A stretch of DNA of 64,000 nucleotides from a bacterium (GTDB taxonomy: Bacteria > Patescibacteriota > Microgenomatia > Levybacterales > UBA12049), in the NCBI GenBank assembly GCA_021780675.1, contig JAJXYH010000004.1:5668-69667 (forward strand). The letters are read 5' to 3'. The notes below the pieces were generated by a model, which was not told the origin of the DNA, did no database searches, and worked only from the letters and a program-made list of their open reading frames with translations. How positions within the stretch are numbered: the stretch's first letter is position 1; each line of letters opens with the position of its first letter. This document shows positions 46,306 through 63,525 of this stretch, piece after piece. The translations under genes and the position numbers were made by a program.

Positions 46306-46392
46306 CGGAGAGGGCGAGATTCGAACTCGCGAAGAGCTTGCACTCTTAGCGGTTTTCAAGACCGCCGCACTAGTCCACTATGCGACCTCTCC
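46306..46392 (-). tRNA. tRNA-Ser (anticodon TGA), class II long variable arm
   Basis: Manual fold: acceptor GGAGAGG/CCTCTCC, anticodon stem GCGGT/ACCGC, loop CTTGAAA, T-arm GCGAG-TTCGAAT-CTCGC. Confidence 0.8.
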
Positions 46393-46525
46393 AAGTGTAT
46401 CGAGGAGATTAGTACCTGCATGAAATGCATGGTACGACCTCTCCGTAATGCTAATTATAATTTAACTTGATGGTTTATGCCAGTATTTACTTGACTATTA
46501 GTTTCTTATCTACTACATTAAATTT

Positions 46526-47056: not shown

Positions 47057-47101
47057 CAATTTGCCCCAAACTATTATATAAAGTAAAATACGAGTATCTT
47101 T

Positions 47102-47174
47102 GTGCCCGTAGTTCAACGGATAGAACACCTGGTTGCGGTCCAGGCGGTTGGAGGTTCGATTCCTCTCGGGCACG
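47102..47174 (+). tRNA. tRNA-Arg (anticodon read as GCG)
   Basis: Acceptor GTGCCCG/CGGGCAC, D-arm GTTC-AACGGATA-GAAC, anticodon stem CCTGG/CCAGG with loop TTGCGGT, T-arm GGAGG-TTCGATT-CCTCT. The isotype is inferred from the anticodon only. Confidence 0.65.
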
Positions 47175-47179
47175 CAAAA

Positions 47180-48901
47180 TCAATTACAATTCCCACCGGA
47201 AACTTTAATATTTTTCAACTGATTATAGAAATTCTGGTAAATATATCCATAATTTTTTATCGTGCAATCGTTCGGGTCATTTTTGTGTAATATAAAGTAG
47301 ACTTGTTTTTCTAAATTTACCCAATTTGCCCGGTCAAAAAAATATAAATAATTAATTAGCGAGTTTGTATCTAAATTTGTACCGATTTTAAACGTGTTTT
47401 TGTCAATTAAATATTTACTAATTAACTTTTTATTCTCGTTATTATTTTTAATTAAAATTAATGAAAAGTCATCCAAATAAATAGGCTTGAAGTCTGAACT
47501 ATTTAAGTAAAATTGAATATTCTTTGAAGATTCATAAGTATAGAACACAAAAATAATATTAACTTTGTATTTTATAAAAATCGGTTTTAATAAGTTGGGG
47601 TTTTGAGTAGCCGGGTAATAAACATTAAGACCGAATTCTTTTGGGTAAGCTTCCGGACGGGCGTCAATAAATACTTTTTCTTTGGGGAACAAAGAGTACG
47701 CCAAATATTGTCCGCTGTCAAAATTATTATAAATTGGTCCATGCAGTTTATTATCCAAATAAAAAGTAATGGAGTTTTTGCCGGGATTATTTGCGCCAAG
47801 GCCTAACATTTGTTGGGAAACGTGTTTAAAAAGAAAAAGAACCAAGCACATACAGATAAAAAATAAGATAAGATTTTCAAAATTAACAATCCTTTTATTG
47901 GATAATGTTTTTTTTGCAAAAATTAACAGATTATTTATAACCAAGCTTAAAATTTTTACCGATGGAATAAAAATTGCATATGCAAAAAAGGCAATGTTCC
48001 GGTTTGCGTAAACCACGCCGAATGTAAAAGTAAAAATCAATAAAAAATCGGATAAAAATAATTTTTTCCGGTAGCGTAAGCCCAACAAAAACATAAAAAT
48101 TCCATAACAAATTGCAGTTAAAAACGGTTGGTAATACATACCGTTTCTAATCATGTAAATTATATTTTGGTTTTCGGCAATTGACACGGAATATCCAAGG
48201 TTAAAACTTAACGGGAATAGTGCGCCATTAATAAAATTTGGGTTTAAAAAAGTAGCTATTATTGATAAGAGAAAAACTTTTGATAAAGTTTTAAATTTTT
48301 GTGAACGGATGGTTTTGCCTGAAAAAAATTCATCAATAGCAAAAATAAAAATTAAAACAAGTCCTAGGACAAAAAAGATATGCAGGTTTACCCATAAGGC
48401 TTCCATTGGGATTAATAGATATATTAGTAAGGTCTTTTTCTCTTTAAATTTATAAAGAATAAGCAAAAACAAAGTGAGTAAAAAATAGCTGAAGATTTCC
48501 GGACGTATTTCGTTTCTCAAGAAGACTAAATTTAAAATTATAAGTGAAGTTAATAATATAGAAATTGGATGGAATCTTTTAATGGAATAAATAATTAAGC
48601 TTAAAAAAGTAAGCAGTGATATTATTTCAATAAAAATAACTAAGCCATTAAACCCCGTAAAGTTTACAATTAAATATAATATGATTTCCGAAAGCCAATG
48701 GGAATTTACATAATGATAATTGGTGTTTGTATAAGAGATTAAATTGGTTTTTATAATCTCGTGTGTTTGTACCATGTACTTACCAAACAAAAGATGTCTT
48801 CCCAGGTCAAGATTAAGCGATGCGGGATGGAAGAAAGCAATAAAAATAAACAGGAAACAAAAAAAATAGGCACAAACTAATAAGATTTTCTTTAATCCCA
48901 T
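47180..48901 (-). CDS. large polytopic membrane protein, possibly GT-C family glycosyltransferase
   Basis: 573 aa with >12 hydrophobic helices. No verifiable motif. Confidence 0.35.
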   Translation of the reverse strand: MGLKKILLVCAYFFCFLFIFIAFFHPASLNLDLGRHLLFGKYMVQTHEIIKTNLISYTNTNYHYVNSHWLSEIILYLIVNFTGFNGLVIFIEIISLLTFLSLIIYSIKRFHPISILLTSLIILNLVFLRNEIRPEIFSYFLLTLFLLILYKFKEKKTLLIYLLIPMEALWVNLHIFFVLGLVLIFIFAIDEFFSGKTIRSQKFKTLSKVFLLSIIATFLNPNFINGALFPLSFNLGYSVSIAENQNIIYMIRNGMYYQPFLTAICYGIFMFLLGLRYRKKLFLSDFLLIFTFTFGVVYANRNIAFFAYAIFIPSVKILSLVINNLLIFAKKTLSNKRIVNFENLILFFICMCLVLFLFKHVSQQMLGLGANNPGKNSITFYLDNKLHGPIYNNFDSGQYLAYSLFPKEKVFIDARPEAYPKEFGLNVYYPATQNPNLLKPIFIKYKVNIIFVFYTYESSKNIQFYLNSSDFKPIYLDDFSLILIKNNNENKKLISKYLIDKNTFKIGTNLDTNSLINYLYFFDRANWVNLEKQVYFILHKNDPNDCTIKNYGYIYQNFYNQLKNIKVSGGNCN

Positions 48902-49000
48902 AAGTTGATAATAGCAAATTTTATTTTAACCGTTTGTCTGTTAAAATATAAAGACCCGGAGGGGTCTTCCTACAAGAGGACTATTCTCCTTGGTAAACCC

Positions 49001-49087
49001 GGAGGGGTCGCATAGTGGACTAGTGCGGCGGTTTCGAAAACCGCTATAGCCGAAAGGTTATCGTGAGTTCGAATCTCACCCTCTCCG
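49001..49087 (+). tRNA. tRNA-Ser (anticodon CGA)
   Basis: Same scaffold as the other Ser tRNAs (GGAGGGGTCGCATAGTGGACTAGTGCGGCGGT). Anticodon loop TTCGAAA. Confidence 0.8.
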
Positions 49088-49193
49088 CACGTCGCAATAA
49101 GACTTTCGCTTTTCACTCCAACATGGTTGGAGCTTAAAATTTTAAGTCTTTTGCCCCTTTTAAAATTATTGCGTAATTTTATAGAATGTTTTT

Positions 49194-49991
49194 ATGGATA
49201 AAATAATTGAAGTTAAAAATCTTATTAAGAAGTTTAAAGATTTTAAAGCGGTAGACGATGTTACTTTTGAAGTTGAAAAAGGAGACATTTTTGCCTTTTT
49301 AGGACCTAATGGTGCAGGTAAAACAACCACCATAAAAATGCTAACCACGCTTTTAAAACCAACAGCAGGAGAAATTTTATTAGATAATATTAATGTAATT
49401 AAACATCCTGAAAACGCAAGAAAAAACTTCGGCATCGTATTTCAAGACCAAAGTTTGGATGATGAATTAACGGCATTAGAAAACATGGAATTCCACGCCG
49501 TTCTTTATGGAGTTGGTAAGAATCTTAGAGAAAAAAGAATTGAAGAACTTTTAAATTACGTTGAACTTTGGGACAGGAGAAAGTCTTTGGTTAAAACATT
49601 TTCCGGTGGGATGAAAAGGCGTTTGGAAATTGCACGCGGACTTTTGCATCATCCCAAAATTCTGTTTTTAGATGAACCGACTTCGGGTTTAGACCCGCAG
49701 ACCAGGAATTATATTTGGGACTATATTGCCAAATTAAACAAAAAAGAGGATATAACGGTGTTTTTTACAACACATTACATTGAAGAGGCGGAAAAATATT
49801 CTAAAACAATTGCCATAATGGATCATGGAAAAATAATTGCCAAGGAGTCCCCGCAGAAGTTAAAAGAGCAGACGAAAACAGACAGTTTGGAAGCAGCATT
49901 TCTGGCATTAACCGGAAATAACATTAGAGATGAAGATGCCAACGGGATAGATCAGCTTAGAAATCATAGAAAAATGTGGAGGGGGCATTAA
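49194..49991 (+). CDS. ABC transporter ATP-binding protein
   Basis: Walker A GPNGAGKTT, signature FSGGMKRRLEIA, Walker B LFLDEPTSGLD. Confidence 0.85.
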   Translation: MDKIIEVKNLIKKFKDFKAVDDVTFEVEKGDIFAFLGPNGAGKTTTIKMLTTLLKPTAGEILLDNINVIKHPENARKNFGIVFQDQSLDDELTALENMEFHAVLYGVGKNLREKRIEELLNYVELWDRRKSLVKTFSGGMKRRLEIARGLLHHPKILFLDEPTSGLDPQTRNYIWDYIAKLNKKEDITVFFTTHYIEEAEKYSKTIAIMDHGKIIAKESPQKLKEQTKTDSLEAAFLALTGNNIRDEDANGIDQLRNHRKMWRGH

Positions 49992-49992
49992 T

Positions 49993-50739
49993 ATGAATGC
50001 AGTTTATATTTTGTGGAAAAGAGAATTGTTAAGATATTTTAGATCACGTGCAAGACTTGCCGGTTCTTTAGGTCAGCCGCTTTTATTTTTAGTAGCTCTG
50101 GGGTTTGGTTTGGGTCCTGTTTTTCAAAAAGCGGGGCAAGGGAATTATTTTGAGTTTTTAGCGCCTGGTGTTGTTTCCATGGGAATATTATTTACGGGAA
50201 TTTTTGCCGGAATTCAGGTTATTTGGGACAGACAATTCGGTTTTTTAAAGGAAACTTTAGTTGCGCCAGTTACCAGGTTTGAAATTGTATTGGGAAAAAC
50301 ACTGGGGGGAGCAACAGTTGCATTTTTACAAGGGCTGATAGTTTTGATTTTAACGCTTCTAATCGGAGTAAAAGTTCATTCCTGGACTTTGTTTCCGTTT
50401 GCGCTTGTAGCAATGTTTTTAATTGCGGTATTTTTTACAGCTTTAGGAATAACTATTGCTTCTCTTTTTGAAGACATGCAGGGATTTCAGCTGGTAATGA
50501 ATTTTGTAGTTCAGCCGACATTCTTTTTGTCCGGAGCTTTATTTCCTCTTACAGGGCTCCCAAACTTTTTAAAAATAATTACCGAAGTTGATCCCCTAAC
50601 TTATGGCGTGGATGCGGTGAGGGGTGCATTAATAAACCAGGGACATTTTCCTCTGTCTACAGATATTGGCGTAATGTTTATTTTAAGCATTGTTGTTTTG
50701 GTAATCGGAAGTTATTTGTTCTCCAAAGTTGAGGTTTAA
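49993..50739 (+). CDS. ABC-2 family transporter permease
   Basis: 248 aa with 6 hydrophobic helices. Immediately follows the ABC ATPase. Confidence 0.7.
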   Translation: MNAVYILWKRELLRYFRSRARLAGSLGQPLLFLVALGFGLGPVFQKAGQGNYFEFLAPGVVSMGILFTGIFAGIQVIWDRQFGFLKETLVAPVTRFEIVLGKTLGGATVAFLQGLIVLILTLLIGVKVHSWTLFPFALVAMFLIAVFFTALGITIASLFEDMQGFQLVMNFVVQPTFFLSGALFPLTGLPNFLKIITEVDPLTYGVDAVRGALINQGHFPLSTDIGVMFILSIVVLVIGSYLFSKVEV

Positions 50740-50742
50740 TTT

Positions 50743-51159
50743 ATGAAATTTGAATTTTCCGCAGGAGGAATAGTTTATAAAAAAGAAAATGGAAAAGTTT
50801 TTATAATTGTTGCAAAACATTCATCGCATCACGGATGGGTTTTTCCAAAAGGATTAATCGGCGATCATATTAAAAACGAAGGAAAAGAAGAAACCGCCGT
50901 TAGAGAGGCGGAAGAGGAAACAGGCGCTAAAGGAAAAATTATTCAGGAGCTTTCCCCCGTGACATTTTGGTATGAATGGGAAGGGGAAAAGCGTAAAAAA
51001 ACAGTTTATTACTTCTTAATGGAATTTATTCGAGGAGATATAAAAAAACACGACTGGGAAATGGAAGAGGTTGAGTGGTTGCCAAAGGATAAAGTTTTAG
51101 ATAGGTTAACTTATGAATCGGATAAAAAAGTCTTCCAAGAAGCACAAAAACTGATATAA
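50743..51159 (+). CDS. Nudix hydrolase
   Basis: Nudix box GLIGDHIKNEGKEETAVREAEEETG. Confidence 0.75.
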   Translation: MKFEFSAGGIVYKKENGKVFIIVAKHSSHHGWVFPKGLIGDHIKNEGKEETAVREAEEETGAKGKIIQELSPVTFWYEWEGEKRKKTVYYFLMEFIRGDIKKHDWEMEEVEWLPKDKVLDRLTYESDKKVFQEAQKLI

Positions 51160-51172
51160 TTACGAATGTCTT

Positions 51173-51262
51173 GGAGGGGTCGCATAGTGGACTAGTGCGC
51201 TTGCTTGGAAAGCAGGTATATCCGCAAGGGTATCGAGGGTTCGAATCCCTCCTCCTCCGCCA
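51173..51262 (+). tRNA. tRNA-Ser (anticodon GGA), CCA encoded
   Basis: Acceptor GGAGGGG/CTCCTCC, anticodon stem CTTGC/GCAGG with loop TTGGAAA, long variable arm, T-arm GAGGG-TTCGAAT-CCCTC. Confidence 0.8.
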
Positions 51263-51264
51263 AG

Positions 51265-52635
51265 CTATTTAATCTTTTCAGAGGCTAGTGTTGTCGCAAC
51301 CACAACAAGAAGTGCCAGAAGACCTAGTCCTTTAGCTCCATTTTTTAATTTACCCAGCGCATCTAATTTTTTGCGTTTTTCCTCCGCCTCCGGGGAGGTA
51401 TCATCTTTTAATTTTTCTTCAGCATCGGCAATAACTGCTTCAATAACCGGTTTAACATCTCCGCTTCTAATTGCATCAGTAATTTTTTTTGCAGTTTCTG
51501 CGGGAATTTCACCGCTTTGTATTTTATTGCCAAAATCTGCAATTAAATCATGTGCGCTTTGTCCACCGTTTGCTTCTAAAACCGTACCCCAATTTTGAAG
51601 CATTGAAGCTTCGTTTTGCAAAGACAATATTTGCTGGCTTATTTGCGCTTTTTGCGCCTCAGTCGTTGCTGTCTCCAATCGTTTACTAAGTTGACTTAAT
51701 TCATTTGGAATTTCTGTGCTTCTTGTTGAAATATCATCGGGAGTAAGATTTGCTCCCATCAGTACGATTTCGGCAAGTGTATTACCTGAAATAATCACTT
51801 CATCGCCCATTGCTTGTCTTGCAGCTTCTATTTGATCAGCAGAAATAGATGATTTTTGAGAATCCAGATAAGTATCAATATCGGATCTTGTAATAAGGTT
51901 TGCTTCTCTTGCTTCTTGTTCAAGTAGATCCCGGGTTCTAGCGATATTTTCATCACTAAACATCTCTTGCGCTAATGCCTGGGCTTTGTTAGGATCTTGC
52001 ATTGTGGCAATATAATAATCTATAAACTGAGCGTCATCTCCTGTAAACATTGCTGTCAATTCCTGCTGTTCGGCAACAATTTGCGCATCAATTAAATCAT
52101 CCCAGGGAACTATTTGAGTTCCTTGTGGTTTTGAACCGGTTGGAAGTTCATAAGCATCCTCGTCTTGTGTATTTTCAAGAATTGCCATAGCTTTTCCGTT
52201 GTCATTTACCACCCCGCTTATTTTTAAGACTCTGACGACCTTTTGTTCTCCATTAAGTGTGATCGTTACATAAATTGGTTTTTCACCTCCTGAATGGTCG
52301 GTAGTTATATCAACGGGTTCTTCTTTTCCATCTTGAGCATTCGTTAACATCACTTTTTCGCCATTTGAATGAGTTAGGGTATCATTTTTTAAGCCCATTA
52401 AGCCCTTAAGTAAATGTCCTGTTTCTCCTCTTTGGAGTGGGGGATCTTTAGTTAGTTTTCTGGCAAGCAAAACTTTTCCAAGTCTAATTGCGTCTTTTTT
52501 TGCAGTATCTCTTATTTCATCTGTTATTACGGGCGCTTCATGATTTTCTGCATCAGGTTGGGCAGTATCATCTGGCAATTCTGGTGCGGCAGTGTCTGGT
52601 TGTGGTTGTGGAGCTTCGGCTCCGGTTTCGCTCAT
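51265..52635 (-). CDS. tail-anchored hypothetical protein (acidic Pro-rich N-terminus, single C-terminal TM)
   Basis: 456 aa. C-terminal GLGLLALLVVVATTLASEKIK. Confidence 0.4.
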   Translation of the reverse strand: MSETGAEAPQPQPDTAAPELPDDTAQPDAENHEAPVITDEIRDTAKKDAIRLGKVLLARKLTKDPPLQRGETGHLLKGLMGLKNDTLTHSNGEKVMLTNAQDGKEEPVDITTDHSGGEKPIYVTITLNGEQKVVRVLKISGVVNDNGKAMAILENTQDEDAYELPTGSKPQGTQIVPWDDLIDAQIVAEQQELTAMFTGDDAQFIDYYIATMQDPNKAQALAQEMFSDENIARTRDLLEQEAREANLITRSDIDTYLDSQKSSISADQIEAARQAMGDEVIISGNTLAEIVLMGANLTPDDISTRSTEIPNELSQLSKRLETATTEAQKAQISQQILSLQNEASMLQNWGTVLEANGGQSAHDLIADFGNKIQSGEIPAETAKKITDAIRSGDVKPVIEAVIADAEEKLKDDTSPEAEEKRKKLDALGKLKNGAKGLGLLALLVVVATTLASEKIK

Positions 52636-52648
52636 AAATTTATATTAG

Positions 52649-55627
52649 TTGATTTTTATTGTCAAATCAATTAATAATAAAGATAGTATGGCTATAGACA
52701 ATATAGACAATGTGTCAACGCGTGGGCCAGATGCTGCAGGTGATAAAAAAAGTAATCAGCCACCAAAAAGAATTGTTCCTTTTTCTCCAACCAGCGATAA
52801 AACCGCAATAGATGCAAATGGAGCGGCTGTTAAGGTTAGAGCATCTGAGTTTTTAACTAGAGTATCTGGATTAGAAACAACAGATAGAGACAGGGTTTTA
52901 ACTGGAAAAGTTGAAAGAGACGAACTTCCGATTAGTGCAGAAGTAGTGACGGGTTTAAGAAATTTTACAGAAAGTTATGTCCGAAAACTTGTCCTACTTA
53001 GAAAAGACGGTGTGTATGACCAAATGAAAAGGCAGCAAGAAAGAGGTAGCGACCAGGCGGATTATTTGGAAGACAAGTATATGCTGGAGCTTTTTACCGA
53101 CAAACAAACTGGTGAAGCTAAAAAATTCGGGGAAATAGAAAATTTAATAACTGAACATCCTCTGATTTTGCAAAATGTAATGCTGGTTGCTGAAAGATAT
53201 GCAAGAGATACGCTGGCAGCTTATGGGTTAAGGGCAGAGATGTATAGGCCTGGGAAAAGAACAGAGCTAACAGATCCAAGACTTGAGCGAACAATTGATC
53301 TTCCGGTTGATCAAGGAGCGTTAAGATCAACTTATAACCGAGTACGAGATTGGACGCAAAGAAGACACGAAGTGGGTGGAAGGCCCGATCCAAACGATCC
53401 CGATTCCAATTTAGATTATTTTTTAAACCATGCCGGTATACCGGTTGGAGCTGGAGCAATTGGTGTTGGAACGATAGGTGGGGTAGTCGGAGCGGTCGGA
53501 GCTTTGTTTGGTGCGGGACCAGGAGAAGTGGGGGGTGCTATTGCCGGTGCTGCAGTTGGCGCGGGTGCTGTTTTGGGTGGGTTAGCGGTCGGTAGATCAT
53601 TCCGGGAGGGTCCAAGATTAAGGTTAGTTGTAGATAATGAAGTTAGAGCGCAGTCTCAAAGAGGAGCAGAAAGACTTAGAATGGAGAGGTTAATTGGTGT
53701 TAACCCGACAAACTTAACAGAATCAACCGACAGCCCTGCTGCAAATGATGCGATTAAAATAATATATCTAAGGCAAATGTATTTAAGGAATTTAGATAAT
53801 TCAGGTGAAGTATTTGATGCCTTTAGCGATCAATTTATAACTAACGGAGGTACGGCAAACCGGTTTGAGGAAACGCGAACGGTTATGGGGTCTAGGGTAA
53901 ATGCGGAATTTCAAAGTTTAAGAGATGCTTATTTAAGAAATCATCCTGATGCAACCCCTACACAACTTAGAGATTTTTACAGAAGAGCGCAGGAAACAGT
54001 TTTATTTAGAAATTTTGAGGAAGTTTCCGAAAAGGTAAGGCCCGAAGAAAACATAGCAGGAAAGTTGCAAACTGCTATTGATGCAAGAAAACCCGAAGGG
54101 TCAGCTCATGTGGAAAGAACAAGAGTTGCAAGTGAAGAAAAAGGCCGTTTGACTACCGAAAAACAAACTCTTGCTGCATCAAGAGAAGCCTTAACAGGAT
54201 ATGAGGGGAAATTACTAACAATAGAAAAAGCGCGTCAGGACCTACAGAGGGAACTTGCAAAAATTAATGGGGGCGGATTGGATTACGCTCATGCATTACA
54301 AGAGCTGCGAATAGCTCAAAGCGCAACCGGAACAACGATTACAATTACAACAGATACGGGTATAGAAACAATTACAGATTTACATAGCGATATATTAGCT
54401 CATAGTCAGGGTCTTGCTAATGATCTTGGGAATATTAGAATTCCAAATCCTGGTGAGGATACAGATGCATATCGAGATTTCCGTAGTGCAGAGGCTGCAA
54501 AGATTCGTTTAGCTCATAAACCCGAAACAGACGAAGACAACAGGAAAACACAACTTATAATAAGTAGAATAACAGAATTAACAAGACTCCAGGGGGTAAT
54601 TGATGAAGCATCAAGGAATTTACTTCAGGCAGAAGAAATAAAAGCCGGTGGGCAAGAATTTGTAAAATTTCAAGAAGCATTTCAGCGTGTTGATTCCCTT
54701 GGTCTTCCAGGGGCATTATTGTTTACCCAAACGCTTGAGCAAAATCTAGCTGATGCAAATAATTTGTTCGATATGGATCCTAATTTCGGCTGGCCTGAAA
54801 GCGAAAACAACCAGATGCGGGAAGTTTTAAGAAGAGCAACTATTCAAGCAAGGGCAAACGATGCAGAAAGGGCAGATCCTATTCTTGCTCCTTTTGAGAA
54901 TAATTTTGATGAATTTAGGGGACTTGGTTTATCTACGGAACAAATTGCCTTAATGAGCCTAGACGACTTAAGAGCAAGATATGTTCGCACACATCCTGCG
55001 GCAACCGGAACCGAAGCAGATAATGCTCAAAGATGGGCTTTGGGACAATTAAGGTTTTTACAAGCGTCTGTTAACCAAGAAGCAACAGTAGTAGATAATT
55101 CTCTTAGGGTACAGGAGAGGTTTATAAACGGAGTTGATCTGACTCAAGAGAGAGAGCAACTGGAAGTTGTAAAAGATATGTGGGATAAAAGAAAAGGCAT
55201 TAGAGCAAGAGCAGTTGATGGGGTGCTTAATAATCGCGCTGGCCTTGAAAATACAGACCACGTTCAAGCAAATACGGAAGGTTTTACTCAGGCAGAGGCA
55301 GATTCACAGCTACCAAGAAATGTTTTGGAGGTTTTAAATATGATTACCGGTTATCAAGACGTAGATAATGCAGACGGTAGAGCTGAAGCTTTTGCTAAAA
55401 TATGGAGAAATTTTGGGCAAAATCCACCAACAGCTGATACACTGTTGTTAGTAAGATTAAGAGATGCGTTTGAGGTTCCGCAAGCTCACGCAAACAGCTT
55501 TAACGAGCTAGCAGCCTATCTTAGGACAAGGTTTAGAAACAATAGGATTAATTCTGGTAACATTGCGCAATACGTAGGAAGAAACGCTGTTTCACAATTT
55601 ACTGAGTGGGGAAGGAGCTTAGGATGA
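52649..55627 (+). CDS. large hypothetical protein (992 aa) with ~55-aa glycine-zipper hydrophobic segment
   Basis: GIPVGAGAIGVGTIGGVVGAVGALFGAGPGEVGGAIAGAAVGAGAVLGGLAVG at about residues 255-310. The rest is soluble, helical and acidic. Locally GC-richer DNA. Confidence 0.45.
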   Translation: MIFIVKSINNKDSMAIDNIDNVSTRGPDAAGDKKSNQPPKRIVPFSPTSDKTAIDANGAAVKVRASEFLTRVSGLETTDRDRVLTGKVERDELPISAEVVTGLRNFTESYVRKLVLLRKDGVYDQMKRQQERGSDQADYLEDKYMLELFTDKQTGEAKKFGEIENLITEHPLILQNVMLVAERYARDTLAAYGLRAEMYRPGKRTELTDPRLERTIDLPVDQGALRSTYNRVRDWTQRRHEVGGRPDPNDPDSNLDYFLNHAGIPVGAGAIGVGTIGGVVGAVGALFGAGPGEVGGAIAGAAVGAGAVLGGLAVGRSFREGPRLRLVVDNEVRAQSQRGAERLRMERLIGVNPTNLTESTDSPAANDAIKIIYLRQMYLRNLDNSGEVFDAFSDQFITNGGTANRFEETRTVMGSRVNAEFQSLRDAYLRNHPDATPTQLRDFYRRAQETVLFRNFEEVSEKVRPEENIAGKLQTAIDARKPEGSAHVERTRVASEEKGRLTTEKQTLAASREALTGYEGKLLTIEKARQDLQRELAKINGGGLDYAHALQELRIAQSATGTTITITTDTGIETITDLHSDILAHSQGLANDLGNIRIPNPGEDTDAYRDFRSAEAAKIRLAHKPETDEDNRKTQLIISRITELTRLQGVIDEASRNLLQAEEIKAGGQEFVKFQEAFQRVDSLGLPGALLFTQTLEQNLADANNLFDMDPNFGWPESENNQMREVLRRATIQARANDAERADPILAPFENNFDEFRGLGLSTEQIALMSLDDLRARYVRTHPAATGTEADNAQRWALGQLRFLQASVNQEATVVDNSLRVQERFINGVDLTQEREQLEVVKDMWDKRKGIRARAVDGVLNNRAGLENTDHVQANTEGFTQAEADSQLPRNVLEVLNMITGYQDVDNADGRAEAFAKIWRNFGQNPPTADTLLLVRLRDAFEVPQAHANSFNELAAYLRTRFRNNRINSGNIAQYVGRNAVSQFTEWGRSLG

Positions 55628-56007
55628 CAACTAAAATTAATACTAAAACAATGATAAATTATTTGCCTTTTCCAAACGAGGTTAAATTAGAATTGTTGGG
55701 TAAATTCGATAATTTATCAAATGATGATCAAACTAAAATTACGGATTTGGTTTGGGATGCATTTGAAATTGTTTACAACAACAAAGTTCAAGAAAATTTA
55801 GATAAATTAATTGCGGAGGCCGATGAGAATGGACAAAAAACAGATGATACATTTTACGGAAAAGCAGTTGATATGACAGACCAGGAAGTTAGAGAAGGTT
55901 TAACATCAACAACAGATGTTGCCGATCTTACCAATGTTAGAAAAAGCATGGAATTAATTGTAAACGAAATAAAAGCCGCACAAAATGAAGGAACGCTGAA
56001 AAAGTAA
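55624..56007 (+). CDS. small acidic hypothetical protein, translationally coupled to the 992-aa gene
   Basis: Start ATG at 55624 overlaps the upstream TGA (ATGA). GGAAGGAG SD at 55611-55618. Confidence 0.4.
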   Translation: MTTKINTKTMINYLPFPNEVKLELLGKFDNLSNDDQTKITDLVWDAFEIVYNNKVQENLDKLIAEADENGQKTDDTFYGKAVDMTDQEVREGLTSTTDVADLTNVRKSMELIVNEIKAAQNEGTLKK

Positions 56008-56009
56008 TT

Positions 56010-57800
56010 TTACCTACTGGTTCTTAATGCATTAATTATTACCGCTACGTCGATTGCTTCTTGTAAAAATGCTCCCATAATTGGTGGAATAAAACCAAAG
56101 GAGGCAAAACCCATTCCCACAATACTAATTCCAATTCCAACAAATATGCTTTGTTTGGCAATTGCAATTGTTCGCCTGGCAATATTTAAACATTCCAATA
56201 CAAGCGAAAAATCTCCTCCCAAAAATACAATGTCCGCAGCCTCGCTGGCAGCAGTTTGCTCTTCGTTACTAAACACCATGCCAACATCTGCCATTGCAAG
56301 AGCAGGTGCGTCATTAATACCATCTCCCACCATAGCGGTTACTTTACCTGCCTTTTTAAGTTTTGTTATTCCTTCCTGTTTATCTTGCGGGGTACTTTCA
56401 GCCATAATATCGATATTTACCCCCAGCATTTCTATTACTTTTTCAGCCGCTTGTTTTTTATCTCCGGTAAAGATTTTAATATCAAATCCCTGGGCAATTA
56501 AATCCTTAATGATTGTTTTTGATTCAATTTTGATTTCATCTTCAAAATGGAACTGGGCAATTTGTTTACCGCCGGTAAACAGTCCGATTTCCATACCATT
56601 ATGACTATTAAGTTTTGATAAAGTAAATTGCTTATTATCAACCGTACCGGTTATCCCAACCCCGATTTTTTCTTCAATTTTTTCTGCACTTTTAAGGTGC
56701 GCCTTTTTAGCGGATGCATACTCAACAATAGCTTTTGCCAAAGGGTGCAAAGAATTTCTTTCGATGCTTTTAGAAATTGCCAAAAGTTCTATTTCACCAA
56801 ATGATTTATCCATAATTTTAAATTCGGTAACATGGGGTCTTCCCAAAGTTATGGTTCCGGTTTTATCAAAAATAATCGCGTTTGCTCTGGATAATACTTC
56901 AAGTCCCGAAAGTTTTTTAACAATCATACGTTTTTTGGAAGCTAAATTTACTCCTCCTAAAAGTGCTATCGGCGTTGCAATAATCAAAGGGCAGGGTGTA
57001 GCGATAGCAAGTACCGAGAGAGCCCGGGTTAAATCAAAACCTGAGTAAGTATAAGCAAAAGCGGTAATTATAAGTGTTATAACCGTAAAATATCCGGAGT
57101 ATTTATCAGCTAGGCGTATAAATGGAGTTTTTTCTTCCTGTGCATTTTTAACCATGGTAACGATTTTGTTGTAAGTTGAATTCTTTTGCTCACTGGTTAC
57201 TTTAATAACAATCGGGTTTCCAATATTTATAGTTCCACTTCTTATCGGGTCGCCTTTTATTTTTTCAATGGTGTAAGGCTCACCCGTTAGCGAAGATTCA
57301 TCGGTCAGTCCGCTGTCGGAAATTAGAATTCCATCAAGACCGATTACTTCACCTTTTCTAACATAGATTTCTTCGCTCTTTTTAACTTTTTCAATTTTTG
57401 TTTTTTCTCCAATTTCATTATTTTTCCAATACAGCACTTCATCGGGGATTCTTTCGGCAAGTTTTGTTAAAGATTTTTTCGCTTGGGACACGCCATAATC
57501 TTCTAAAGTCCTACCCGATGCAATCATTAAAGCTAAAATTGTCGATACCAGATATTCCTGTGTTATAAGTGCAACTACAATTGCCAGGATGGCAATATAA
57601 TCAAGCGCAAATTGTTTTTTAAGAATTGAAGTTACTGTTTCATAAAACAAGCGGTAACTTCCAAGAAGAGTTGCCAAAACCCCAATAATTCCAGCTGGAG
57701 TATTTAATTTAAGAAGAAGTAGGATAACATAAAGAATAATTCCAAAGGTTACAATAAGCGGAACTAAGAATGTTTTAAGCAAATTAATTTTTAGGTTCAT
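56010..57800 (-). CDS. P-type cation-transporting ATPase, P1B-like (CPx motif, no N-terminal metal-binding domain)
   Basis: DKTGTIT phosphorylation motif, GDGINDAPAL hinge, TPCPL in a TM helix. Confidence 0.75.
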   Translation of the reverse strand: MNLKINLLKTFLVPLIVTFGIILYVILLLLKLNTPAGIIGVLATLLGSYRLFYETVTSILKKQFALDYIAILAIVVALITQEYLVSTILALMIASGRTLEDYGVSQAKKSLTKLAERIPDEVLYWKNNEIGEKTKIEKVKKSEEIYVRKGEVIGLDGILISDSGLTDESSLTGEPYTIEKIKGDPIRSGTINIGNPIVIKVTSEQKNSTYNKIVTMVKNAQEEKTPFIRLADKYSGYFTVITLIITAFAYTYSGFDLTRALSVLAIATPCPLIIATPIALLGGVNLASKKRMIVKKLSGLEVLSRANAIIFDKTGTITLGRPHVTEFKIMDKSFGEIELLAISKSIERNSLHPLAKAIVEYASAKKAHLKSAEKIEEKIGVGITGTVDNKQFTLSKLNSHNGMEIGLFTGGKQIAQFHFEDEIKIESKTIIKDLIAQGFDIKIFTGDKKQAAEKVIEMLGVNIDIMAESTPQDKQEGITKLKKAGKVTAMVGDGINDAPALAMADVGMVFSNEEQTAASEAADIVFLGGDFSLVLECLNIARRTIAIAKQSIFVGIGISIVGMGFASFGFIPPIMGAFLQEAIDVAVIINALRTSR

Positions 57801-57853
57801 AAGCTTGTCTAGATTATATCAAGTTTTAAATGGTATAATTGAGTGTAATTCAA

Positions 57854-57942
57854 GGAGGAGTCGCATAGCTAGGTCCATTGCGAGGGTTTGCTAAACCCTT
57901 GAGCTGAATAAGCTCGCGTGAGTTCGAATCTCACCTCCTCCG
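57854..57942 (+). tRNA. tRNA-Ser (anticodon GCT)
   Basis: Acceptor GGAGGAG/CTCCTCC, anticodon stem AGGGT/ACCCT with loop TTGCTAA, long variable arm, T-arm GTGAG-TTCGAAT-CTCAC. Confidence 0.75.
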
Positions 57943-57958
57943 CTACCGCCCGGGGATA

Positions 57959-59811: not shown

Positions 59812-60504
59812 ATGAATTTTTTGGATTTCGTTTTTCCTAAAAGATGTGTTGTTTGCAAAAGAGCGGGAAGTTATCTTTGTGGAAATTGTTTCGTAACCCT
59901 TTCATTTGATGTAAAAAACTTGTGCCTTGTCTATAATAAGCCAACATTTAATAATTTAACTCATCCGGTTTGCAAATCTAAATATGCAATAGACGGGTGT
60001 TTTTCCGCCGTTTCTTACAATAAGACCACTAAAAAATTAGTATCCAGTTTTAAATACAACCCATACTTTACAGATTTTCAATTCTTATTGACAGACCTTT
60101 TTTACGAAAGCCTTATTTAAAATGAATATTTTCAAAAATTAATTTCAAACGGTAACTGGACTTTTGTTCCCATTCCGCTTTTTCCATCAAAGCATAGAAC
60201 GCGGGGTTATAACCAAGCGGAAATTTTGGCAAAAAACTTATCAAAAGTATTTAAAATGCCAGCGGGGAATTTACTTATACGAATAAAAGATACAAAAACA
60301 CAAGTTGGAAAGGGCAATATCGACAGAAAATTAAATATTAAAGGAGCATTCAAAATATCAGACAGTAAATTTTCAATAGCAAATAAAAATATATTTCTGG
60401 TGGACGATGTTATTACAACAGGATCAACTTTAAACGAAGCGGCAAATGTCTTAAAAAGGGAAGGGGCGAGAAAAGTAATAGGAATAACTTTTGCAAGAGA
60501 TTAA
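59812..60504 (+). pseudogene. comFC: comFC-like (ComF family phosphoribosyltransferase) gene interrupted by an in-frame TAA at 60118-60120
   Basis: N-terminal zinc finger CVVCKRAGSYLCGNC...C. The region after the stop reads NWTFVPIPLFPSKHRTRGYNQAEILAK (the ComF signature), then the PRTase motif IFLVDDVITTGSTL. Both ORF-track pieces (59812-60120, 60226-60504) are in the same frame. Confidence 0.6.
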
Positions 60505-60505: not shown

Positions 60506-60534
60506 AAAAAACCACCTTCAAAAAGGTGGTTTTA
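60506..60534 (+). terminator. rho-independent terminator after comFC (bidirectional)
   Basis: aaaaaccacctt-caaaa-aggtggtttt hairpin with a U-tract on plus and an A-tract upstream. Confidence 0.6.
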
Positions 60535-60660
60535 TGTGGACACAATCCAAATAAATTGGAATCAAATAGAAGACTATGTTTTTAAGTGGTATCCAATATT
60601 GCAGAGAAGAAGCCTAGCTTCGCTTTAAATAATTTTAGGAGATATCACAAGGTGTTATTT
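60535..60660 (+). repeat. direct repeat R1 (~125 bp), near-identical to R2 at 61636-61765
   Basis: tgtggacacaatccaaataaattggaatcaaatagaagactatgtttttaagtggtatccaatattg(c/t)agagaagaagcctagcttcgctttaa is shared; ~95% identical over the first ~100 bp. Confidence 0.7.
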
Positions 60661-60669
60661 GAACTTAAT

Positions 60670-60909
60670 TTAAATTAATCTGCTAACAAAAAGAACAATT
60701 AATGCTCCGCCAATTGCAACCGCAAAGGAAACTAAATTAAACCCCGTTACTCCAACATTTAAAAACATTTCTCCTAAATATCCACCAACTACAGCACCTA
60801 TCACGCCCAATATAATTGACCCTATTATTCCACCTCTAAATCCAGGAGAAATAAAATTTGCTATGGTTCCAGTAATTAATCCAAAAATTAACCAATAAAT
60901 TATACTCAT
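60670..60909 (-). CDS. GlsB/YeaQ/YmgE family transglycosylase-associated small membrane protein
   Basis: 79 aa, Gly-rich TM helices (ITGTIANFI...GGIIGSIILGVIGAVVGGYLG). Confidence 0.65.
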   Translation of the reverse strand: MSIIYWLIFGLITGTIANFISPGFRGGIIGSIILGVIGAVVGGYLGEMFLNVGVTGFNLVSFAVAIGGALIVLFVSRLI

Positions 60910-60958
60910 ATTCTTTTCACATCCTTTCTAAAACCTAATTTTAAAAACAACAAGCTAC

Positions 60959-61348
60959 TTAAGCCTGTTGTTTTTTACCTGAAAGTATTCTTAATAACTT
61001 TACAATCCCTACTGCTAATACTGCATATACAACTACTGCAACTATTGTCGCTGGCTCTAAGACTGCTGTTGTGACCGCACCTTGTCCTGTGGCTTGTTGA
61101 AATATTCCCTGAAAGGGAACTACAAAAATACTCGTAATACCATAAATAAAACCTACAAAAACGCTATATCCATTGGCTCCTGTTAGTCTTAATATTAACC
61201 TAAAAATTAATAGTATTTCTAATGCACCAAATATAAAATAAATTAAATATTCTATTGTTTGATAGCTTGTTGCTTGTTCACTACTCGTTGAAACCGCAAC
61301 TGGAGTATTATTCTGTGTGTTTACTGTCTCTTTTACTAATTCTGCCAT
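60959..61348 (-). CDS. YggT-like small membrane protein
   Basis: ILLIFRLILRL and a second TM repeat. Assignment tentative. Confidence 0.4.
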   Translation of the reverse strand: MAELVKETVNTQNNTPVAVSTSSEQATSYQTIEYLIYFIFGALEILLIFRLILRLTGANGYSVFVGFIYGITSIFVVPFQGIFQQATGQGAVTTAVLEPATIVAVVVYAVLAVGIVKLLRILSGKKQQA

Positions 61349-61592
61349 TCTTTTTCACATCCTCTCTTATATCAACTTTTTTGATAATTGTTTCTTTTGG
61401 TAAATACTGAATTAATGCTTTTTCTACAAGGCCGGTAAGCGTCAAGTCTTCAATGATTGCTTGAGCCTTAGCCTGCTTTGCGATTGAGGAATTAATAAAA
61501 AGAGTTACTCTTTGGATGTTGTTAGTTGTCATACTTGATATATTACAACTAATTGAAGTACTTGTCAATGTATCAATACTGCCTTTTGCCAA
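61308..61592 (-). CDS. small hypothetical protein, possibly ribbon-helix-helix; true start probably the internal Met (~61532)
   Basis: MTTNNIQRVTLFINSSIAKQAKAQAIIEDLTLTGLVEKALIQYL resembles a CopG/RHH fold. The N-terminal 20 aa overlap the upstream gene. Confidence 0.3.
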   Translation of the reverse strand: MAKGSIDTLTSTSISCNISSMTTNNIQRVTLFINSSIAKQAKAQAIIEDLTLTGLVEKALIQYLPKETIIKKVDIREDVKKNGRISKRDSKHTE

Positions 61593-61641
61593 ATAAAAAA
61601 GGATTAGATTGTATTATCAACCTAATCCTTTAATTTGTGGA
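61591..61641 (+). repeat. 51-bp copy of the tmRNA terminator hairpin plus the last 10 nt of the tmRNA 3' end (direct repeat of 62575-62625)
   Basis: aaataaaaaaggattagattgtattatcaacctaatcctttaatttgtgga is identical at both sites. Confidence 0.75.
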
Positions 61642-61765
61642 CACAATCCAAATAAATTGGAATCAAATAGAAGACTATGTTTTTAAGTGGTATCCAATAT
61701 TGTAGAGAAGAAGCCTAGCTTCGCTTTAAGTTATTTAAGTTGTTATCACAGGGTGGTGTTGGAAC
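61636..61765 (+). repeat. direct repeat R2 (see R1)
   Basis: See R1. Confidence 0.7.
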
Positions 61766-61805
61766 TGTTGATAAAGATAGTTAATTTATTTATACTCGTA
61801 GTATT

Positions 61806-62576
61806 ATGACCGATGGACAAGAAATACCACAATATCTTCCTCTCCCAGAGTTTATGAAGCAAATTGAAAGTGGTGATTTTGACCTTGCTCAACTTAGAAC
61901 AACAGTAGGTCAGTTAAGCGAGACGACATTTGGACAAAATTTAAATAAATACCTTGATTTTGTAACCAGCAATACTGGGGCACACGCTATATTAAGAGGA
62001 GAGCTGCATCCACGAGGCGTAGAGTCAGAGTTTGCCCACGGCAACTTACCTATTAGACAAGAAGTTGCAAGACGCATTGAGCAGAGCACTGGTTTTCATT
62101 TTGACCCTGCAGTATCAACACCTGAGCAAAGAGAAGAAATTTGGGGAGCACTTCAAGAATTTACAGGAGTTCAAGTTGATGGTGCAACAAGAGAAAAAAT
62201 AAATTTAGGAATACCAGATAAGTTTCCACCAAGTGTTTATAGAATACCTTGGATAGGGGAAGACGAGGTTATTATTAGACAAGATGAGATTTATGCAATT
62301 GATAGAGATGTTAAGCCTGGTCATATTCTTAATGCATCAGAACATACATACACTGTGTTTAAGGGCGGAGCCTTGAAAGGTGTTCTCTCTATGACAGAAT
62401 TAAGTGATTATGAAAAAGAGAAGGGTAAGAGTACTGTCTATGCAAGAGTTTCGCCTAAACCTCTTTCTCAAACTTATTTTACTGATAAAATCTCTGGTAA
62501 AGCGAGAAATGAATTTGTTTATCTAAATTCTAGTTCACCTTATTTGCAGCCAGCAAGACCTCATACAGGCGCTTAA
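61806..62576 (+). CDS. hypothetical protein carried between the two 51-bp direct repeats at the tmRNA 3' end
   Basis: 256 aa, no recognisable motifs. Composition less AT-rich than the flanks. Confidence 0.4.
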   Translation: MTDGQEIPQYLPLPEFMKQIESGDFDLAQLRTTVGQLSETTFGQNLNKYLDFVTSNTGAHAILRGELHPRGVESEFAHGNLPIRQEVARRIEQSTGFHFDPAVSTPEQREEIWGALQEFTGVQVDGATREKINLGIPDKFPPSVYRIPWIGEDEVIIRQDEIYAIDRDVKPGHILNASEHTYTVFKGGALKGVLSMTELSDYEKEKGKSTVYARVSPKPLSQTYFTDKISGKARNEFVYLNSSSPYLQPARPHTGA

Positions 62577-62625
62577 ATAAAAAAGGATTAGATTGTATTA
62601 TCAACCTAATCCTTTAATTTGTGGA
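62575..62625 (+). repeat. 51-bp direct repeat copy 2: tmRNA terminator hairpin (62581-62617) plus tmRNA 3' end
   Basis: See 61591-61641. Confidence 0.75.
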
Positions 62626-63032
62626 GATGTCGGGAAGTGATCCCGAGTCCAAGAATGTAATGTAAAAAAATCTACAAGCTTATTCTACTTTTAAAAGTCG
62701 CAATATTTTTTTCCAGTAGAAGGGAATAAATACTGCCAAGATTATAAATTCGATAAGGACTCAATCAAATTCCTTATTAATTCTTAGGCTAAGTTTATGC
62801 CCAAAATTTTCCACCTAAGCGAGAAAATAAAGGACATCTCAAAGCTTACTTAAGCAGCTAGTGCTAAAGCAGGTCGAGAACCATAAAGTTCGGCGAGAAT
62901 TGCGTCTCTTTCCGCCTTTAAGGCTGAAATGCTATTTTTAGCATTTATTGTTTGATTATTCTTTAGCGTCTATTAATCAAAGACGGCTTGCGTTTTTTAA
63001 AGTGCGAATCTTGTCGATGCAATTGCATCCCC
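62622..63032 (-). ncRNA. ssrA: tmRNA (ssrA)
   Basis: On the minus strand: 5' GGGGATG pairs with 3' CATCTCC-A (tRNA-like acceptor), T-arm-like CGGG-ATCACTT-CCCG. An internal tag reading frame ends ...GCT TTA GCA CTA GCT GCT TAA = ...ALALAA*. Adjacent to smpB. Confidence 0.7.
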
Positions 63033-63093: not shown

Positions 63094-63525
63094 TCAAGAT
63101 AATTCCTGGTCTAGTCGGCGTTTTATGTCCCGTTTTTTAATGCTTTCCCGCTTTTCGTATTTTTTCTTGCCCTTCCCAAGCGCAAGCTCAAGTTTTACAA
63201 ATCCGTGTTTAAGATATAAAGACACCGGCACAACCGAAAGGTTTGCGCCGTCGGTTTTTGTTTTTAAAGCAATTATTTCTTTCTTATGAAGCAGTAATTT
63301 TCTGGTCCGCCTATCGTCATATCCTTCTATTTGTCCGGGCTGGTAGGCAAAAATCTTGGCATTTACCAAATATGCTTCGCTTCCGATAACACGGACAAAG
63401 CTTCCGTTTAAATCCGCCTTGCCAAGTCTTACGGATTTTACTTCGTGTCCAAATAAATTAATTCCGGCTTCAAACCGGTCTTGCAATTGATAGTCAAAAA
63501 ACGCTTTTCGGTTGGTAATTTTCAT
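63094..63525 (-). CDS. smpB: SsrA-binding protein SmpB
   Basis: FDYQLQDRFEAGINLFGHEVKS...C-terminal basic tail KKRDIKRRL. Confidence 0.85.
   Translation of the reverse strand: MKITNRKAFFDYQLQDRFEAGINLFGHEVKSVRLGKADLNGSFVRVIGSEAYLVNAKIFAYQPGQIEGYDDRRTRKLLLHKKEIIALKTKTDGANLSVVPVSLYLKHGFVKLELALGKGKKKYEKRESIKKRDIKRRLDQELS

Follow-up and report, generated by a model that had tools for sequence, protein, structure and literature searches.

Two recombinase-less gene cassettes in tandem at the tmRNA gene of a Levybacteria-like bacterium, with ends homologous to a large serine recombinase gene

The comFC–ssrA spacer

The window analysed here is the whole 64,000-nt (64-kb) stretch of DNA from a Levybacteria-like candidate-phylum bacterium. 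The spacer between its comFC-like gene and its tmRNA gene (ssrA) holds two gene cassettes arranged in tandem where the tmRNA gene ends, at 60535-61635 (~1.1 kb) and 61636-62619 (~1.0 kb), neither with a recombinase gene. The features of the locus are as follows, where R and T denote the repeats at the cassette ends and LSR a large serine recombinase.

59812-60504, plus strand: comFC-like gene, left flank of the array (Pfam DZR_2 and Pribosyltran)
60508-60533, no strand assigned: host terminator hairpin 3' of comFC, terminator-like on the minus strand, directly after the comFC stop codon
60535-60665, plus strand: R1; 60536-60628 is an apparent relic of a 31-codon LSR C-terminal tail (VDTIQINWNQIEDYVFKWYPILQRRSLASL and stop), followed by a 37-nt spacer
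60536-60540: putative crossover core GTGGA, copy 1
60670-60909, minus strand: cassette 1, 79-aa membrane protein of the Transgly_assoc / GlsB-YeaQ family (Pfam PF04226, E = 1.5e-9)
60959-61348, minus strand: cassette 1, 129-aa YGGT-like membrane protein (PF02325, 26.1 bits, slightly below the cutoff of 27; E = 1.2e-5)
61308-61532, minus strand: cassette 1, small protein, possibly ribbon-helix-helix (weak DUF6364 match, E = 0.0034)
61591-61635, no strand assigned: T1, A-run and 14-bp hairpin (61598-61631)
61636-61766, plus strand: R2, apparent LSR tail relic as in R1, with a CAG-to-TAG change at 61703-61705
61637-61641: putative crossover core GTGGA, copy 2
61768-61796, plus strand: promoter-like site TTGATA-17-TATACT for ORF256
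61806-62576, plus strand: cassette 2, ORF256 (no Pfam or PADLOC match)
62575-62619, no strand assigned: T2, identical to T1; predicted intrinsic terminator immediately 3' of the tmRNA gene
62621-62625: putative crossover core GTGGA, copy 3 (placed by Rfam alignment)
62621-63032, minus strand: tmRNA gene (ssrA), the presumed integration target (ARAGORN; Rfam RF00023, 102.8 bits)
63094-63525, minus strand: smpB (Pfam SmpB on the same protein in L001)

On the left, the comFC-like gene contains an in-frame TAA at 60118-60120, and the identical stop is found in L001, a contig of the same species, while the comFC gene of L020/L034 is intact (231 aa). In the leftmost junction (attL), the hairpin that follows the gene forms the B arm, on the host side. 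On the right, the tmRNA 3' end (62621) is joined straight to T2, and ssrA has a consensus promoter at 63071-63042. Read on the minus strand, the third core copy is TCCAC, which comprises the last three acceptor-stem bases of the tmRNA, the discriminator A and the next C. The order of three genes, ORF256 and tmRNA recurs in independent assemblies (L002/L008, L009 and L010).

The GTGGA core is common to every junction of the window and to about 26 related junctions. The first-pass annotation had described each repeat as starting at a tgtgga junction, and TGTGGA is indeed found at all three (60535-60540, 61636-61641 and 62620-62625), the segment repeated at 60535, 61636 and 62620 being GTGGA (5 bp) or TGTGGA (6 bp).

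Repeats at the cassette ends

Two pairs of direct repeats had been reported from the sequence, and both were recovered. The 51-nt pair (61591-61641 and 62575-62625) is exact, and the longer pair extends to 131 nt (60535-60665 and 61636-61766) with 92% identity; over the first 94 nt the identity reaches 98.9%, whereas the final 37 nt have diverged far more. BLAST within the 64-kb window gives the two pairs E-values of 8e-25 and 1e-47 and no further copy of either repeat. The same annotation placed the last 10 nt of the tmRNA inside the 51-nt block; only 5 nt (62621-62625, TCCAC) belong to it, or 7 nt by the Rfam boundary. Given that only GTGGA is common to the gene and the repeats, the repeats are not a duplicated 3' end of ssrA, as had been proposed. 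Beyond the core, the 51-nt repeat consists of a hairpin borne by the element, and the 131-nt repeat of a recombinase 3' coding tail and a spacer.

By its sequence, R would be the far (P') arm of attP, carrying the last 31 codons of an LSR gene. A 31-codon reading frame tail beginning at the core (GTG GAC) was found in 31 distinct copies from about 28 loci. Variability at the three codon positions, outside the search pattern, is 0.79/0.63/0.91, and synonymous substitutions make up 44% of the single-base codon changes. In L052, L053 and L054 this frame continues LSR reading frames, and R is homologous to, and in frame with, the LSR tails of P0011, P0059, P0077, P0086, P0089, P0094 and P0108. The spacers of R1 and R2 differ, and the tail relic of R2 is inactivated by its CAG-to-TAG change. 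Several R copies elsewhere are also decayed by stop codons or frameshifts; the set therefore includes at least some dead relics.

The minus strand of the window's R resembles, by eye, a T-arm and acceptor, and R was considered as the displaced 3' half of a tmRNA or tRNA. This was ruled out: neither the tmRNA nor the tRNA model of Rfam matches it, the hairpin is missing from other R copies, and the folds are no better than those of shuffled sequences. In an Islander-type test, R presented no tmRNA similarity beyond the core, against an expected displaced fragment of typically at least 15-20 nt.

T1 is probably a relic of the LSR 3' coding region that also serves as a predicted bidirectional terminator. 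It was aligned to the LAYP(I/V)KLI codons of the LSR genes in L034, L021 and L042, and matches the L034 gene at 22 of 28 bases at the homologous position, a score reached by none of 2,000 shuffles. T is 100% identical across species whose flanking proteins are only 64-77% identical. The ~21 nt of T nearest the core are unlike every LSR P arm seen, and hence T, core and R together perhaps do not form a working attP.

Neither the exact R pattern in the viral and genome contigs scanned nor the T pattern in the viral contigs scanned gave a match, and the T pattern matched one genome (L020). A profile search with the R peptide returned only four spurious small ORFs and missed seven full-length LSRs with R tails, which were recovered through an LSR query.

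Recombinases in the window and in related elements

A Pfam scan of the 38 window ORFs with 170 aa or more found no LSR or other recombinase, and neither did tblastn, which agrees with the earlier observation that no integrase is present. Full LSR-bearing elements occupy the identical comFC–ssrA site in L034 and L021. An LSR gene adjoining ssrA, with its reading frame over the att site, is seen in L021, L034 and L042 and not in the window; given this lack of an LSR, the window units are derivatives rather than complete members of the LSR element family. The three LSRs have 514-516 aa, Resolvase and Recombinase domains and a weak Zn-ribbon match, and their frames read across the core into antisense tmRNA. 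An upstream protein of 52 aa, which is conserved, is a candidate directionality factor. (The tmRNA genes of L021 and L034 were missed by ARAGORN and found with Rfam.) Of ~120 LSR homologues, the majority have a peptide of antisense tmRNA or tRNA as their end, and seven have the R-type tail. Neither the island and the window nor the related elements examined yielded a tyrosine recombinase.

The contig L052 (4.2 kb) has identical 55-nt ends and no tmRNA, and its intact 531-aa LSR runs into the R tail. It is likely a free circle in the expected attP form, its circularity being deduced from the end overlap alone. As a side observation, R-type ORF fragments and LSR ORFs that enter antisense tmRNA are at present mis-called as small or extended proteins (P0004-P0007).

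Cargo genes and their variation

Of the three small genes reported for the first cassette, the Transgly_assoc assignment is solid, the YGGT one lies just under its cutoff, and the ribbon-helix-helix one rests on the weak DUF6364 match. The last protein has 74 aa when read from ATG, while the mechanical ORF reaches 61592 from a TTG; a promoter-like site for this region lies on the minus strand at 61568-61540.

ORF256 has three homologues among 5.8 billion clusters, and its AF2 model (mean pLDDT 38.6) is unusable. The first-pass annotation considered the gene atypical in composition; its GC content is 0.387, in comparison with 0.356 for the window and 0.403 for smpB, which does not set it apart. 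A role for ORF256 as a recombinase was rejected given the lack of domain matches, the three homologues and the unrelated context of one distant homologue (L017). PADLOC presented no matches for six cargo proteins.

Between comFC and ssrA, the relatives carry other genes with the same flanking repeats (L020/L034, L025, L032, L040, L041 and others). R and T ends at the ssrA site bracket ORF178, a 286-aa, a 246-aa and a 252-aa protein, among other cargo, and more than 12 cargo sets share these ends. Many R–cargo–T cassettes without an LSR occur in related genomes, and in L034 such a cassette stands in tandem with a full LSR element. In another organism (L019), the ORF256 cassette lies at a tRNA-Ala gene, with an 85% identical copy of ORF256 and with precise TGTGGAC junctions on its flanks.

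In L001, exactly one unit, the three-gene cassette, is absent, a polymorphism that is based on one metagenomic contig. This single-cassette form is explained most simply by recombination between R1 and R2. The deletion endpoints may fall anywhere in the first 69 identical bases of R, and homologous recombination within these bases explains the form equally well.

Proposed origin of the cassettes and alternative explanations

The first-pass annotation proposed tandem integrase-less islands at ssrA, and this part of its interpretation is upheld by the variable R/T-flanked cargo of relatives, by L001 and L019, and by the LSR elements of L034 and L021. With a probability of roughly 0.8, the locus consists of two recombinase-less tandem mini-islands derived from Patescibacterial LSR integrative elements that target the ends of tmRNA and tRNA-Ala genes. 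As to the observations, the array has the anatomy described above, R and T each show homology to one side of the LSR gene end, the cargo varies, and both the presence of units and the site they occupy are polymorphic.

The LSR of the parent elements would insert at GTGGA (TCCAC), with which tmRNA or tRNA-Ala genes end. In the complete elements, the LSR gene converges on ssrA with a reading frame spanning the crossover core, and the free and integrated forms would therefore encode different LSR C-termini. In the excised circle, the LSR would end with a conserved ~30-aa tail (..SWNxIExYxFKWYPxLQ..ASL) encoded by R, which would become the far-end arm once the element integrates; the end of the integrated gene is antisense tmRNA sequence (..VEMSxxExES..). 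Given that R encodes the tail of the circle form, R1 and R2 would be the P' arms that remain on the left of each unit. T1 and T2 would be what a collapse of the 3' coding part of the LSR gene (the P-side arm) has left, T is also predicted to terminate ssrA and the cargo genes, and T, core and ssrA would together rebuild an attB-like site. The cassettes would have arisen through loss of the LSR module, and may travel either in cis with a neighbouring LSR element, by accretion as in L034, or through homologous recombination that uses R and T.

An unlikely alternative is that the units are immobile relics today. The array structure, the 99% identity of R1 and R2 over their first 94 nt and the L001 form would then result from homologous recombination or gene conversion among copies of R and T, and from relatives exchanging the entire comFC–ssrA segment, e.g., by natural transformation, without site-specific recombination of LSR-less units. 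The homogenisation of R1 and R2 extends over exactly the 94-nt tail, which fits this explanation, as do the freedom of the L001 endpoints within 69 identical bases, the nonsense codon in R2, a T arm unlike authentic P arms and a window without a recombinase. It is at odds, however, with the precise TGTGGAC junctions of the ORF256 cassette at tRNA-Ala in another organism, with the complete conservation of T between species whose flanks have diverged, and with more than 12 cargo sets having common ends.

Two other explanations are far less probable. Classical tyrosine-integrase islands, in which the 3' part of ssrA is duplicated and displaced ssrA fragments form the direct repeats, would place an array with direct repeats at the ssrA 3' end, and such integration is common at tmRNA genes (PMC4383910). 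Yet this is very unlikely here, where the repeated ssrA sequence is only 5 nt, R is an LSR reading frame tail not matched by the Rfam models, and the window and the related elements examined contain no tyrosine recombinase. The scar is therefore not the classical integrase one that was first suggested, in which a tyrosine integrase displaces a tRNA or tmRNA fragment: the recombinase of the related elements is an LSR. It is most improbable that R is a functional unit of its own (a small RNA, a GTG-start micro-protein gene or a dispersed intergenic repeat) located near ssrA by chance. Its peptide is conserved and every copy begins with GTG, but its RNA folds no better than shuffled sequences (z from 0.09 to -0.93) and belongs to no Rfam family, a terminator hairpin lies upstream in most copies, and several copies are broken by stop codons or frameshifts. 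Moreover, copies with a readable upstream region mostly abut the core by a tRNA/tmRNA site or a T hairpin, and the frame joins LSR ORFs in L052-L054. An IS200/IS605-like hairpin-ended ssDNA transposon was also considered and rejected: there is no TnpA, and pieces of an LSR gene make up the ends.

Comparison with known systems

The closest precedent for the LSR-derived cassettes is given by the Dehalococcoides ssrA islands (DsiB; PMC3146451), compared here by layout. Reported in 2011, these are tandem islands downstream of ssrA in which the LSR gene converges on ssrA and its ORF, at the 3' end, invariably extends over the att site or ssrA (PMC3146451). Its authors proposed that DsiB is perhaps complete only on the circle or beside an adjacent island, reported that DsiB C-termini are divergent, and read the islands, about half of which have no integration module, as cis-mobilisable, accreting units (PMC3146451). 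The window array likewise abuts the ssrA 3' end, and its boundary sequences R and T are homologous to the att arms of LSR-bearing elements. It differs in the shared ssrA segment (5-7 bp here, in comparison with 20 bp in Dehalococcoides), in unit size (0.6-1.5 kb with one to three genes, in comparison with multi-kb rdhA islands), in that none of the DsiA, ParB and Mom module was seen, and in the host, which belongs to the Patescibacteria. Furthermore, the displaced 3' fragment of the gene shows strong protein-level conservation here, whereas the DsiB C-termini are divergent.

Cis-mobilisable elements (CIMEs) and accretion-mobilisation, familiar from Streptococcus ICESt1/3, are a second comparison. 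Each window unit is similarly bounded by cores with R and T arms and lacks recombination and transfer genes, as CIMEs are att-flanked units without either. As with CIMEs, a cassette can stand in tandem with a complete element on one shared site (L034), and joint excision is therefore possible. However, CIMEs are defined for tyrosine-recombinase ICEs, while the enzyme here is an LSR and mobilisation is putative; both CIMEs and the accretion-mobilisation of integrative elements are reviewed in PMC5704250.

Integron arrays resemble the cassettes in their small, mostly single-gene units with conserved boundaries and variable cargo, and in a recombinase encoded outside them. They differ in that the present cassettes have no IntI, attC structure or attI/Pc platform, carry their own promoters, occur in both orientations and derive their boundaries from a recombinase gene; integron cassettes were thus ruled out, there being no IntI and the boundary sequences being LSR gene fragments.

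An attP located inside a gene, such that integration alters the protein, is known from the archaeal virus SSV1 and from the integration-dependent immunity of mycobacteriophages. Integration splits the tyrosine integrase gene of SSV1 into two fragments, and the truncated gene of BPs/Brujita is the repressor. The likeness lies in an attP within an ORF whose free and integrated forms have different protein ends, and the difference in that the swap here is limited to the last ~30 codons of a serine recombinase.

A further reading, tentative and probably not correct in full, is that the tail swap is a built-in switch of LSR activity, stability or directionality, with ssrA as an integron-like platform that stockpiles 1-kb cassettes. 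The conserved tail (SWNxIExYxFKWYPxL) would be made solely from the circle, or with the R of another island downstream, and an antisense-tmRNA peptide would take its place after integration. The T hairpin would rebuild the ssrA site after every event, in very small genomes.

Significance

This kind of island is already known in Dehalococcoides, of which the Patescibacterial cassettes are a variant with a short core and a conserved tail. The genomes of candidate-phyla (CPR) bacteria are tiny, and few mobile elements are recognised in them. An ssrA hotspot that collects one-to-three-gene cassettes with many cargos would be a route of accessory-gene exchange for these bacteria. The conserved displaced tail is direct sequence support for a recombinase that is complete only on the circle, an idea that is speculative for the DsiB of Dehalococcoides, and raises the question of a C-terminal swap as a control of integration versus excision. 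Finally, given that these LSRs recognise a short and nearly universal target, the end of tmRNA or tRNA-Ala genes, they may interest those who build integrase tools.

Organization of the array

The repeat search of the window recovered the two direct-repeat pairs reported by the first-pass annotation, and no further copies of either repeat exist elsewhere in the 64 kb. These elements and the neighboring tmRNA gene are as follows:

60535-60665 and 61636-61766, direct pair: 131-nt repeat R (R1 and R2), 92% identical overall, with 98.9% identity over the first 94 nt and the last 37 nt far more diverged
61591-61641 and 62575-62625, direct pair: exact 51-nt repeat
62621-63032, minus strand: tmRNA gene, ssrA (ARAGORN; Rfam 102.8 bits)

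On the plus strand, comFC and its terminator hairpin are followed by TGTGGA, then by a first unit (R1, three minus-strand genes, the 45-nt hairpin T1 and TGTGGA), a second unit (R2, ORF256 at 61806-62576, the hairpin T2 and TGTGGA), the minus-strand tmRNA gene and smpB. The common TGTGGA noted previously was read at all three window junctions. The crossover core, GTGGA, bounds both units; the left end of each is the P' arm of attP including the recombinase tail (i.e., R), the right end is a remnant of the recombinase 3' end, and each unit has a promoter-like site of its own.

The annotation was right about tandem integrase-less integrations at ssrA, yet not about a duplicated tmRNA 3' end: the repeats are serine recombinase gene fragments plus a 5-bp core. 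The overlap of the 51-nt repeat with the tmRNA gene is GTGGA only, rather than ten nucleotides; on the tmRNA strand this TCCAC comprises the final three bases of the acceptor stem, the discriminator A and the C after it. As annotated, no recombinase was found in the island or among the 38 window ORFs of at least 170 aa. ORF256, described as atypical in composition, is not clearly so: its GC is 0.387, and the values for the window and smpB are 0.356 and 0.403.

Regarding the surroundings, comFC has an in-frame TAA at 60118-60120, giving 102-aa and 127-aa parts. The TAA is also present in the independent contig L001, and the gene is intact (231 aa) in loci L020/L034; unless the TAA is read through, the split comFC is a pseudogene. 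Four tRNA-Ser genes and a tRNA-Arg gene are clustered upstream of comFC (46305-57943), an arrangement kept in the Levyibacteriota loci L020 and L034. The window also takes in dnaA and dnaN and hence probably covers the origin of replication. After these genes comes a type-IV-secretion-like cluster that encodes a TraG/VirB4-type P-loop ATPase, a PrgI-family protein and a pair of proteins with T4SS-pilin domains; dnaA, dnaN and the cluster together occupy 29371-31961 and 33533-40454.

Origin of the repeats

Across its copies, R changes as coding sequence does. Its frame, read from the GTG GAC of the core, encodes VD..(I/L).W..IE.Y.FKWYPILQ..ASL and a stop. Variability by codon position is 0.79/0.63/0.91 (outside bases fixed by the search pattern), and 44% of the codon differences that involve one base leave the amino acid unchanged. 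In R2 the frame is broken by a nonsense change from CAG to TAG (61703-61705), and a few copies elsewhere have stops or frameshifts.

A search with the R peptide yielded contigs L021 and L022, ordered terminator-TGTGGAC-R-four small genes-516-aa protein-TGTGGAG-tmRNA. The 516-aa protein matches the Resolvase N-terminal domain and, weakly, a zinc ribbon; its L034 homologue has the Recombinase domain as well. The N-terminus of the 516-aa protein, IYCRVSSQRQ, fits the serine-recombinase catalytic motif. Its ORF crosses the core in frame and stops within the antisense tmRNA (the tmRNA itself being confirmed by Rfam); the large serine recombinases (LSRs) of L034 and L042 likewise cross the core in frame. 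When the ends of L021/L022 are joined as in a circle, the frame continues as …RSGS and then VDISDLSWNRIQDYIFKWYPIL…. Judged from this continuous frame, R is the natural 3' end of the recombinase gene in the excised element, and attP lies within the gene. The tmRNA genes at L021 4475-4839 and L034 12259-12617 were missed by ARAGORN and found by Rfam (98-100 bits).

T (GGATTAGATTGTATTATCAACCTAATCC) aligns with the LAYP(I/V)KLI codons just upstream of the core in LSR genes, lacking the ~21 nt these have between hairpin and core. In the L034 LSR gene (1545 nt), the best T match is the homologous spot, with 22/28 positions, a value reached by none of 2000 shuffles. Next to the core, T-core-R does not have the bases of authentic P arms and may not be a recombination substrate. 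Read on the minus strand, T is predicted to be a good intrinsic terminator right after the tmRNA 3' end. Its identity between the window and L020/L034 is 100%, versus 64-77% for flanking proteins and ~82% for the tmRNAs. Other cassettes are terminated by different hairpins, one of which (AAAAAGCCTCCCGTTAAGGAGGCT) corresponds to the last codons (TKKPPVKEA) of another LSR subfamily.

The recombinase family

The LSR has ~2000 homologues, the named ones belonging to Patescibacteria. Most of the best ~120 end in …VEMSGSEPESE, VEMPGVEPGSEK, VELTGLEPVTSS or similar, peptides that arise when the 3' end of a tmRNA or tRNA gene is translated in antisense; seven of the ~120 (P0011, P0059, P0077, P0086, P0089, P0094 and P0108) have R-type tails after the same junction. 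The ends of P0026, P0061, P0074 and P0093, such as VELTGLEPVTSS or VDPRGIEPLISS, are antisense of ordinary tRNA 3' ends, hence, in addition to tmRNA, several tRNA genes appear to be targets of the family.

One R-tailed LSR resides in L052, a 4224-nt contig with 55-nt identical ends and no tmRNA, which matches the expectation for a free circular element. This putative circle also carries a tRNA-Ser(tga) gene (3916-4006). Another R-tailed LSR, in L054, lies in a chromosome and is followed by a tandem cassette. Directly upstream of the LSR is a 52-aa protein (L021 2808-2966; L034 10599-10754; L042 8867-9022), 77-87% identical across elements versus 57-61% for the LSRs; this protein is a candidate excision or directionality factor. 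In the L034 element, a LOOT RNA (RF03000, 81 bits) sits within the cargo region at 9177-9290.

Distribution and variation among genomes

A degenerate DNA scan of metagenomes yielded 25 more loci. In most copies with readable upstream sequence, R starts with (T)GTGGA(C/G), preceded by either a host terminator or a T hairpin, and many loci have the form terminator-core-R-cargo-T-core-tmRNA. Arrays occur at several (L020/L034, L037, L041, L048 and L049). The cargo is highly varied: besides ORF178 it includes a 286-aa protein bearing an HxH…S..D motif and others with lengths of 246, 252, 117, 108+165, 175, 431, 297 and 302 aa. L034 belongs to the species of L020, a Candidatus Levyibacteriota MAG found by the T pattern. 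It reads comFC-terminator-core-R-ORF178-T-core-R-3.8 kb-LSR-core-tmRNA, so a cassette that lacks a recombinase stands here in tandem with a complete element, and the site is the one occupied in the window. In L045, an identical comFC terminator hairpin plus core (~38 nt; ~3800-3838 and ~4915-4953) lies on both cassette sides, replacing the T hairpin.

Exact-protein look-ups located the same species in several assemblies. The order three genes-T1-R2-ORF256-T2-tmRNA was confirmed in independent contigs L002/L008, L009 and L010. L001 is ~100% identical to the window except for the absence of exactly 60666-61635, which is one unit, and keeps a single R, of R2 type. Comparing the ssrA neighborhood in relatives thus agrees with the annotated insertions: one unit may be missing, and other cargo occupies the same site between the same ends. 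Homologous recombination through R and T, instead of the recombinase, suffices for the L001 deletion because its endpoints may fall anywhere within 69 identical bases, and it also accounts for the homogenized 94-nt tails of R1 and R2.

Of the window cargo, ORF256 alone recurs in other loci, in L019. There, in another organism, an R–ORF256–T cassette (85% identical) lies at the 3' end of a tRNA-Ala(CGC) gene, with TGTGGAC on either side. Given tRNA-Ala and tmRNA share the …TCCA acceptor end, these are related targets between which the cassette has moved. ORF256 has a single distant homologue, P0003 (60% identity, 202 aa; L017 2725-3333); its context is a different one, of HTH, protein kinase and Uma2 genes, and no tRNA or tmRNA gene was found on contig L017.

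Discussion

In Dehalococcoides, tandem islands occur at ssrA with the LSR DsiB adjoining it; 15 of 31 islands have no integration module and were read as cis-mobilisable accreted units, and a tRNA-like gene is carried there too, as in L052 (McMurdie et al. 2011, PMC3146451). The logic is the same and the likeness is one of layout. However, the host clade here is Patescibacteria, the common core is only 5-7 bp rather than 20 bp, the cassettes are ~1 kb, the DsiA/ParB/Mom module is absent, and the displaced tail is strongly conserved as protein, even in LSRs only ~50% identical to the query. The defining features of classical tyrosine-integrase tRNA/tmRNA islands (PMC4383910) were not found here, nor were those of integrons.

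The window units would have arisen from LSR elements by deletion and would resemble cis-mobilisable elements. The L034 layout implies that T-core-tmRNA would restore an attB at which a further element can integrate. Once in place, an LSR element could leave by itself or, via the outer attL, take the neighboring cassette along; cassettes would in this way be carried to new sites and later stranded, and L019 could be accounted for likewise. As a tentative and rather unlikely extension, swapping of the tail could regulate the recombinase, and the ssrA site could be an integron-like cassette platform in genomes of candidate-phyla bacteria.
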